Below are positions 13,885 to 14,087 of a stretch of DNA of 33,627 bases, piece by piece; position 1 is the stretch's first letter, and each line of letters opens with the position of its first letter. Position numbers and translations under genes: made by a program. The stretch is taken from positions 1-33,627 of the forward strand of contig CAXHJY010001181.1 of assembly GCA_964016885.1 (NCBI GenBank), read 5' to 3'. The notes below the pieces were generated by a model that did not search any database, was not told the origin of the DNA, and saw only the letters and a list, made by a program, of their open reading frames with translations. The stretch comes from Eledone cirrhosa (taxonomy: Eukaryota).

Positions 13885-14087
13885 CAACTATCTGGTTGTG
13901 GAACCAACCAACCAACCAGAAATTTATAAATTTGTAAATTTATAAATATATAATAAATTAAATTGAAGTGAAAGCAACTGGTGCGTGTGTTTCTTATTGG
14001 CAACATGACCCTCCCAAAGTATAACAATATCGGTTTCAACACACGATTTCAGATAAAGAATCTTGCTAAACAAATTCAGAAACGAAA

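Follow-up and report, generated by a model that had tools for sequence, protein, structure and literature searches.

Penelope-like elements (PLEs) are already known to carry tails that consist of the start of their own open reading frame (ORF) and mark internal priming. One such element, Poseidon PAc, comes from Anolis carolinensis (Frangieh 2024, PMC11167929). Its protein cuts both strands of AT-rich DNA and needs an RNA that includes the ORF's first 172 nt. Reverse transcription starts at two sites within the ORF, and the tail lies between them. The initiation site is reported not to be homologous to the cut DNA. In vitro, internal initiation on uncleaved read-through RNA was favoured, insertion was unaffected in hammerhead mutants, and uncleaved RNA was the main substrate. 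In Pen2a of Adineta vaga (Arkhipova et al. 2013, PMC3846280), codons 1 to 12 of the ORF lie in the pseudo-LTR (pLTR), and the tail takes this to 22. The same paper attributes circularly permuted contigs to a probable collapse in assembly. Craig et al. (2021, PMC8557442) describe a one-sided tail of 30 to 40 bp, inverted 5' copies and clade motifs. A paper on Octopus vulgaris repeats (PMC13282606) lists Penelope families and gives no tail detail in its accessible part. The word "tail" is absent from the available text of a retrozyme preprint (10.64898/2026.07.22.740005).

The window analysed here is a stretch of 33,627 nt from Eledone cirrhosa (contig CAXHJY010001181.1). It contains two Penelope-like elements, B and C (Table 1). 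Both encode a reverse transcriptase (RT) with a C-terminal GIY-YIG endonuclease, and both have inverted pLTRs, a minimal hammerhead and (TA)n flanks. Both are broken copies. B lies on the minus strand and C on the plus strand. We give a probability of about 0.9 to the reading that B and C are PLE insertions with tails homologous to the first 27 codons of the ORF, which likely come from reverse transcription that began inside the next ORF of a read-through transcript. The direct evidence is the coding-type conservation of the tails, their N-terminal homology, the contiguity of UTR, ATG and ORF in relatives, the two end points and the inverted arms in (TA)n.

Table 1. Coordinates of the features of elements B and C in the window.
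Feature	Position	Strand
B long tail, ATG and codons 1-27 of the PLE ORF, distal end +82	14005..14086	+
B inverted pLTR arm, copy of the 3' UTR, cut short about 40 nt past the stop codon	13553..14004	+
B predicted minimal hammerhead core in the pLTR, CUGANGA, 6-bp stem II, GAAA	13832..13860	+
B hammerhead, mirror copy	9543-9515	-
B right flank, (TA)n target	14087..14303	
B ORF, N-terminal piece, starts SQANK at 13552, holds an Asn-rich low-complexity stretch	12524..13552	-
B ORF, RT (YVDD), CX4CxxC linker and C-terminal GIY-YIG endonuclease, stop 9845-9843	9843..12611	-
B 3' UTR/pLTR, 472 nt, with hammerhead	9371..9842	-
B short tail, ATG, 21 nt, 7 codons, proximal end +21, then (TA)n	9350..9370	-
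C long tail, ATG and 27 codons, distal end +81/82	27341..27421	+
C right flank, (TA)n target	27422..27477	
C 3' UTR/pLTR, predicted hammerhead core 27109-27136	26836..27340	+
C ORF, 5'-truncated, about 108 codons absent at 25464/25465, in-frame stop 26578-26580	24201..26835	+
C inverted arm, copy of 25460-27353, ends in the short tail	22308..24200	-
C short tail, 13 nt (+13), then (TA)n	22320-22308	-

The inverted arms of B (9345-9801/13570-14030) are 98.5% identical. The closest protein is from Octopus vulgaris and is 67% identical. The frame change between the N-terminal and RT pieces of the ORF falls inside the Asn-rich stretch. In intact relatives both pieces are covered by one protein, which has a single RT and GIY-YIG ORF. 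In Pfam, the GIY-YIG match is above its cut-off (23.5 bits against 22.6) and the RVT_1 match is below it (E=3e-4). The linker lies at residue 796 of the RT piece, and its cysteines are invariant in an alignment. Non-coding palindromic or rearranged repeat blocks (14301-15306 and 8535-9333) lie just beyond both (TA)n flanks.

The inverted arms of C (22302-24200/25460-27359) are 99.7% identical, with a nonsense difference at 26578-26580. The long tail is on the right arm and the 13-nt tail is on the left. The inverted arm ends at 25460, at the same base as the deletion of about 108 codons in the forward copy (window 24200-25465), which suggests a template switch common to both cDNAs. The upstream ORF piece of 1.26 kb is the loop between the arms.

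A hammerhead scan of both strands of the whole window gave four cores with a stem of at least 4 bp. All four are in the pLTRs of B and C, and the 6-bp stem II shows compensatory changes between the two UTRs. They are predicted minimal cores. Rfam returned no hammerhead match; its 61 matches were all to miRNA families under gathering scores.

Like EN+ PLEs, B and C have an RT and GIY-YIG ORF, inverted pLTRs, a tail that runs into the ORF start and a pLTR hammerhead motif. By its linker motif B appears to fit Neptune/Nematis. The C-terminal EN+ PLEs of this group (PMC8557442) share with B the C-terminal GIY-YIG, a CX2-5CxxC linker and two cysteines in the GIY-YIG core, and share with B and C the hammerhead, the inverted insertions and the (TA)n flanks. 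B has DKS where Neptune/Nematis have DKG. The Hydra clade is defined by a DKT motif, a CxCX5C linker and no CCHH (PMC8557442), whereas B has DKS, CX4CxxC and cysteines in the endonuclease core. Naiad/Chlamys have an N-terminal endonuclease and no canonical hammerhead, whereas the endonuclease of B and C is C-terminal and hammerheads are present. B and C do not belong to the Poseidon clade, because they have a Zn-finger-like linker.

The long tails begin with ATG at 14005 in B and 27341 in C, and their 27 codons cover 14005-14085 and 27341-27421. The comparison of the tails in the preliminary description was reproduced, with the translations as given there. The peptides are identical at 21 of 27 residues, the codon differences are 7 synonymous and 6 non-synonymous, and both tails pass into (TA)n from codon 28. 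Its statement that the upstream UTRs have diverged also held. Only 11 of the 50 positions before the ATG match without gaps, and self-blastn gave no alignment between the B and C UTRs. The two tails differ at 15 of 81 nt, and 10 of these 15 are at third positions (binomial p=0.009). The dN/dS is 0.21 (Nei-Gojobori; Fisher p=0.005). Of the other five frames, four have ratios of 1.2 to 1.9; the fifth, an antisense frame whose third positions coincide, has 0.24, as expected. The ORF bodies of B and C give 0.25 and 0.15. The preliminary description took the tail as selected coding sequence and held that a dN/dS near 1 would speak against this; the frame-specific ratio and the excess at third positions support its view. 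The dS of the tails is 0.63, below that of the body (1.5 to 1.6), a hint of an extra constraint at the RNA level. About 8% of 27-codon windows of the body differ by 15 nt or less and are as similar as the tails. No stable fold was predicted in the tails (z +0.9 and +0.3).

Relatives were retrieved with the B ORF body alone in a full HMMER search, and the tails were scored afterwards. This gave 161 matches, and the best 150 of the 161 were used. At least 12 residues precede the body match in 25 of these 150. In three long relatives the match to the B body begins at residue 27-30, and in a fourth at about residue 23. Against the best 150 of 161, both tails have P0210 as top match and P0156 as second, in each case at the N-terminus just before the body match. 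In P0210, tail residues 3-27 align to residues 13-37, and the body follows from residue 44. In P0156, the tail aligns from residue 1 to residue 1. The scores for P0210/P0156 are 62/57 with the B tail and 59/48 with the C tail; the maxima of 200 shuffles are 53 and 47. The tail peptide thus matches the first 27 or so residues of the relatives, and the body begins 0 to 6 residues later.

An N-terminal profile was built from 15 relatives, with window sequence excluded. Its members are 10 of the 11 matches that start at body residue 1-2 (P0124 was omitted), together with P0020, P0012, P0007, L001 and L002. The N-terminal relatives are from O. sinensis and O. bimaculoides. Judged by its closest proteins, the host is probably of octopus type. 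Scored against 1304 six-frame segments, the profile ranked the B body, the C tail and the B tail as its top three. The tails cover profile positions 1-27 (E=0.004 each), and the B body covers 30-80. When P0210 and P0156 were left out, the E values were 0.09 and 0.36 and the tails still ranked second and third. A smaller profile of six sequences gave 0.05 and 0.13 for the tails.

At the DNA level, 9 of 114 metagenome candidates are relatives. L001 (49% RT identity) runs from the stop through the UTR, hammerhead and ATG on into the RT ORF by way of a 123-nt terminal overlap. In L002, a direct tandem, there is an in-frame insert of about 640 codons (480-2400) at the position where B and C have Asn-rich stretches; its Thr/Ala/Asn repeats flank a unique stretch that resembles a domain. 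In L003 the end consists of ATG, some 8 codons and (TA)n. None of 6 viral contig candidates was confirmed.

The homology to relatives' N-termini and the contiguity in L001 support the claim that the tail corresponds to the true start of the RT-endonuclease protein. A direct search with the tail peptide gave 0 matches among 2 candidates from word-indexed proteins; the relatives found with the body carried the match at their N-termini. A search with the N-terminal body gave nothing among 548 candidates from word-indexed proteins. In whole-length comparisons of the tails with seven long distant relatives, 13 of 14 were best away from the N-terminus and the 14th was not significant. Among the sequences searched, no copy of the B or C family had tail and body contiguous.

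The preliminary description also expected tandem copies to continue in frame into SQANK. The two relatives closest to the tail have 5 to 6 extra residues at this place, and others have about none. Judging from these alignments, tail and SQANK body are probably not directly joined. Spacing between the TR and xQA motifs is 12 to 19 residues in 9 of 11 rows, two regex misfires being set aside. The B tail supplies 13 of these, so about 0 to 6 codons are missing between tail and body. The closest relative points to a gap of 5 codons. An exact abutment of tail and body (shared A at 14086/13552; RSQA in P0025) was considered and dropped because of the 5 to 6 extra residues in P0210 and P0156.

The two tails of each insertion are unequal, one long and one short. 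The inverted partner arm has the same ATG, with a tail of only 21 nt in B and 13 nt in C before (TA)n. The distal end is common (+81/82), and the proximal end differs (+21 in B, +13 in C), so that the sites are 61 nt and 68 nt apart. The priming point described earlier as conserved between families is therefore conserved at the distal site and not at the proximal one.

These ends resemble Poseidon PAc (PMC11167929), in which insertions also end inside the start of the next ORF, with two start sites, an optional tail between them, an AT-rich target and a pLTR hammerhead. The distal site is at +81/82 in B and C and at +111-118 in Poseidon PAc. The hammerhead core ends 144 to 204 nt upstream of the ATG in B and C, whereas it overlaps the ATG in Poseidon PAc. 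An AC-rich stem-loop is reported for the Anolis element, and no stable stem-loop is predicted in the tails of B and C. Pen2a (PMC3846280) shares the inverted pLTRs, the one-sided tail, the first codons in pLTR and tail, and Asn-rich inserts in the ORF. Its 12 codons are extended to 22 by 31 nt, whereas in B and C 4 to 7 codons are extended to 27 by 61 to 68 nt. The usual PLE tail of 30 to 40 bp (PMC8557442) is shorter than both of these distances. Unlike Pen2a, B and C have no direct 5' pLTR, and a target duplication would be unreadable within (TA)n.

The coding tail is homologous to the N-terminus; therefore the template likely runs beyond the UTR into the next unit, as the preliminary description proposed, and the contiguity in L001 agrees with this. 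By analogy with Poseidon, the element would be transcribed from partial-tandem copies. The protein would bind the RNA near the ORF start and nick both strands of the (TA)n target. One cDNA may be primed at the distal site (+81/82) and the other at the proximal site (+13 to +21). Head-to-head joining of two 5'-truncated cDNAs would leave the pLTRs inverted and a long tail at just one of the two sides. The tail would be kept because it is protein-coding in the master element, and it may also be a cis-acting RNA site.

That the tail is a non-coding cis element or an upstream ORF of the UTR, unrelated to the start of the RT protein, is very improbable. The dS of the tails below that of the body could point that way, with about 8% of body windows as similar, but the frame-specific dN/dS, the N-terminal homology in relatives and the complementary profile coverage speak against it. 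A different template is somewhat easier to defend, if unlikely. It would be a unit-length RNA, either a circle made by hammerhead processing or a monomer cleaved close to +82, and tail and body would be the two ends of one permuted copy. This agrees that the tail is the N-terminus and differs on the template alone. The B body does begin 0 to 6 codons (within about 18 nt) past the stop of the tail; a rough post hoc estimate puts this coincidence at about 0.5% for one arm and about 2% for the four arm ends together, with uniform truncation over 4.26 kb. It is a single case, however, and C is truncated about 190 codons further in. On a linear tandem RNA, protein bound where the upstream ORF starts would also halt reverse transcription at the same place. 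Both UTRs have hammerheads with compensatory stem II changes, and circles have been put forward (Cervera and de la Pena 2014, PMC4209133), but in vitro the hammerhead mutants had no effect on insertion and uncleaved RNA was the chief substrate (PMC11167929). The contigs L001 and L007 have unit length and overlapping ends, a pattern that tandem or collapsed repeats also produce. Nothing in the window data favours a circular over a tandem template.

A short duplex between the nicked (TA)n primer and AU-alternating motifs in the RNA might decide where the end points fall, in place of a fixed protein-defined site. We regard this as a tentative possibility. Both short ends directly precede the longest alternating AT run of their own tail, and scores as good are reached at only 4 of 72 positions in B and at 4 of 71 in C. 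Pairing would also explain the proximal difference (+21 against +13). This lead is post hoc with n=2, though, and each case has one mismatch at the junction base. With a looser 6-base match score, 14 of 72 (B) and 7 of 71 (C) positions do equally well, and the initiation site in Frangieh 2024 (PMC11167929) was not homologous to the cut DNA. It is doubtful that both ideas apply together, with the nicked microsatellite priming by pairing with AUAU in the ORF start codons and the long cDNA stopping at the distal site of the same unit, to leave one permuted unit, the product expected of a circle or of a precisely cut RNA of unit length. If AUAU priming were true, it would be unlike the homology-independent initiation of Poseidon, and target choice would be tied to codon choice. 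Neither the AT-run lead nor the 18-nt-gap lead was found in the passages of freely accessible main texts that were searched. If both leads hold over many copies, they would give a genomic test of circular against tandem templates and of microhomology priming.

The preliminary description called the element permuted. Its tail is indeed homologous to the N-terminus, but this is the published PLE tail and is not new. What B and C contribute is a case from a different PLE clade, in which the tail is longer and two subfamilies share the distal end. Such tails also supply the missing N-terminus when truncated PLE families are curated.

The window contains at least five RT-bearing inserts amid microsatellites. 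A third element (27693-33222) has inverted arms of 1.44 kb (99.5% identical) around a minus-strand RT ORF with RWR, DKT and YRDD. It is Hydra clade-like by motifs. The scan found no hammerhead core in it, and its arm end carries no ORF start. Broken RT (YRDD) and endonuclease-like frames at 1958-3617 have motifs similar to this element and no meaningful Pfam match. Another RT (YLDD, RVT_1 E=5e-6) at 15577-17115 and 17855-18808 has a cysteine linker and an endonuclease-like end. A 141-nt part of it is repeated, inverted, at 96-236. In Octopus vulgaris, a protein annotated as dynein regulatory complex subunit 6-like (P0060) has the RT of this PLE as its first 150 or so residues (79% identity). 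This segment may be an exonized or mis-annotated insert.
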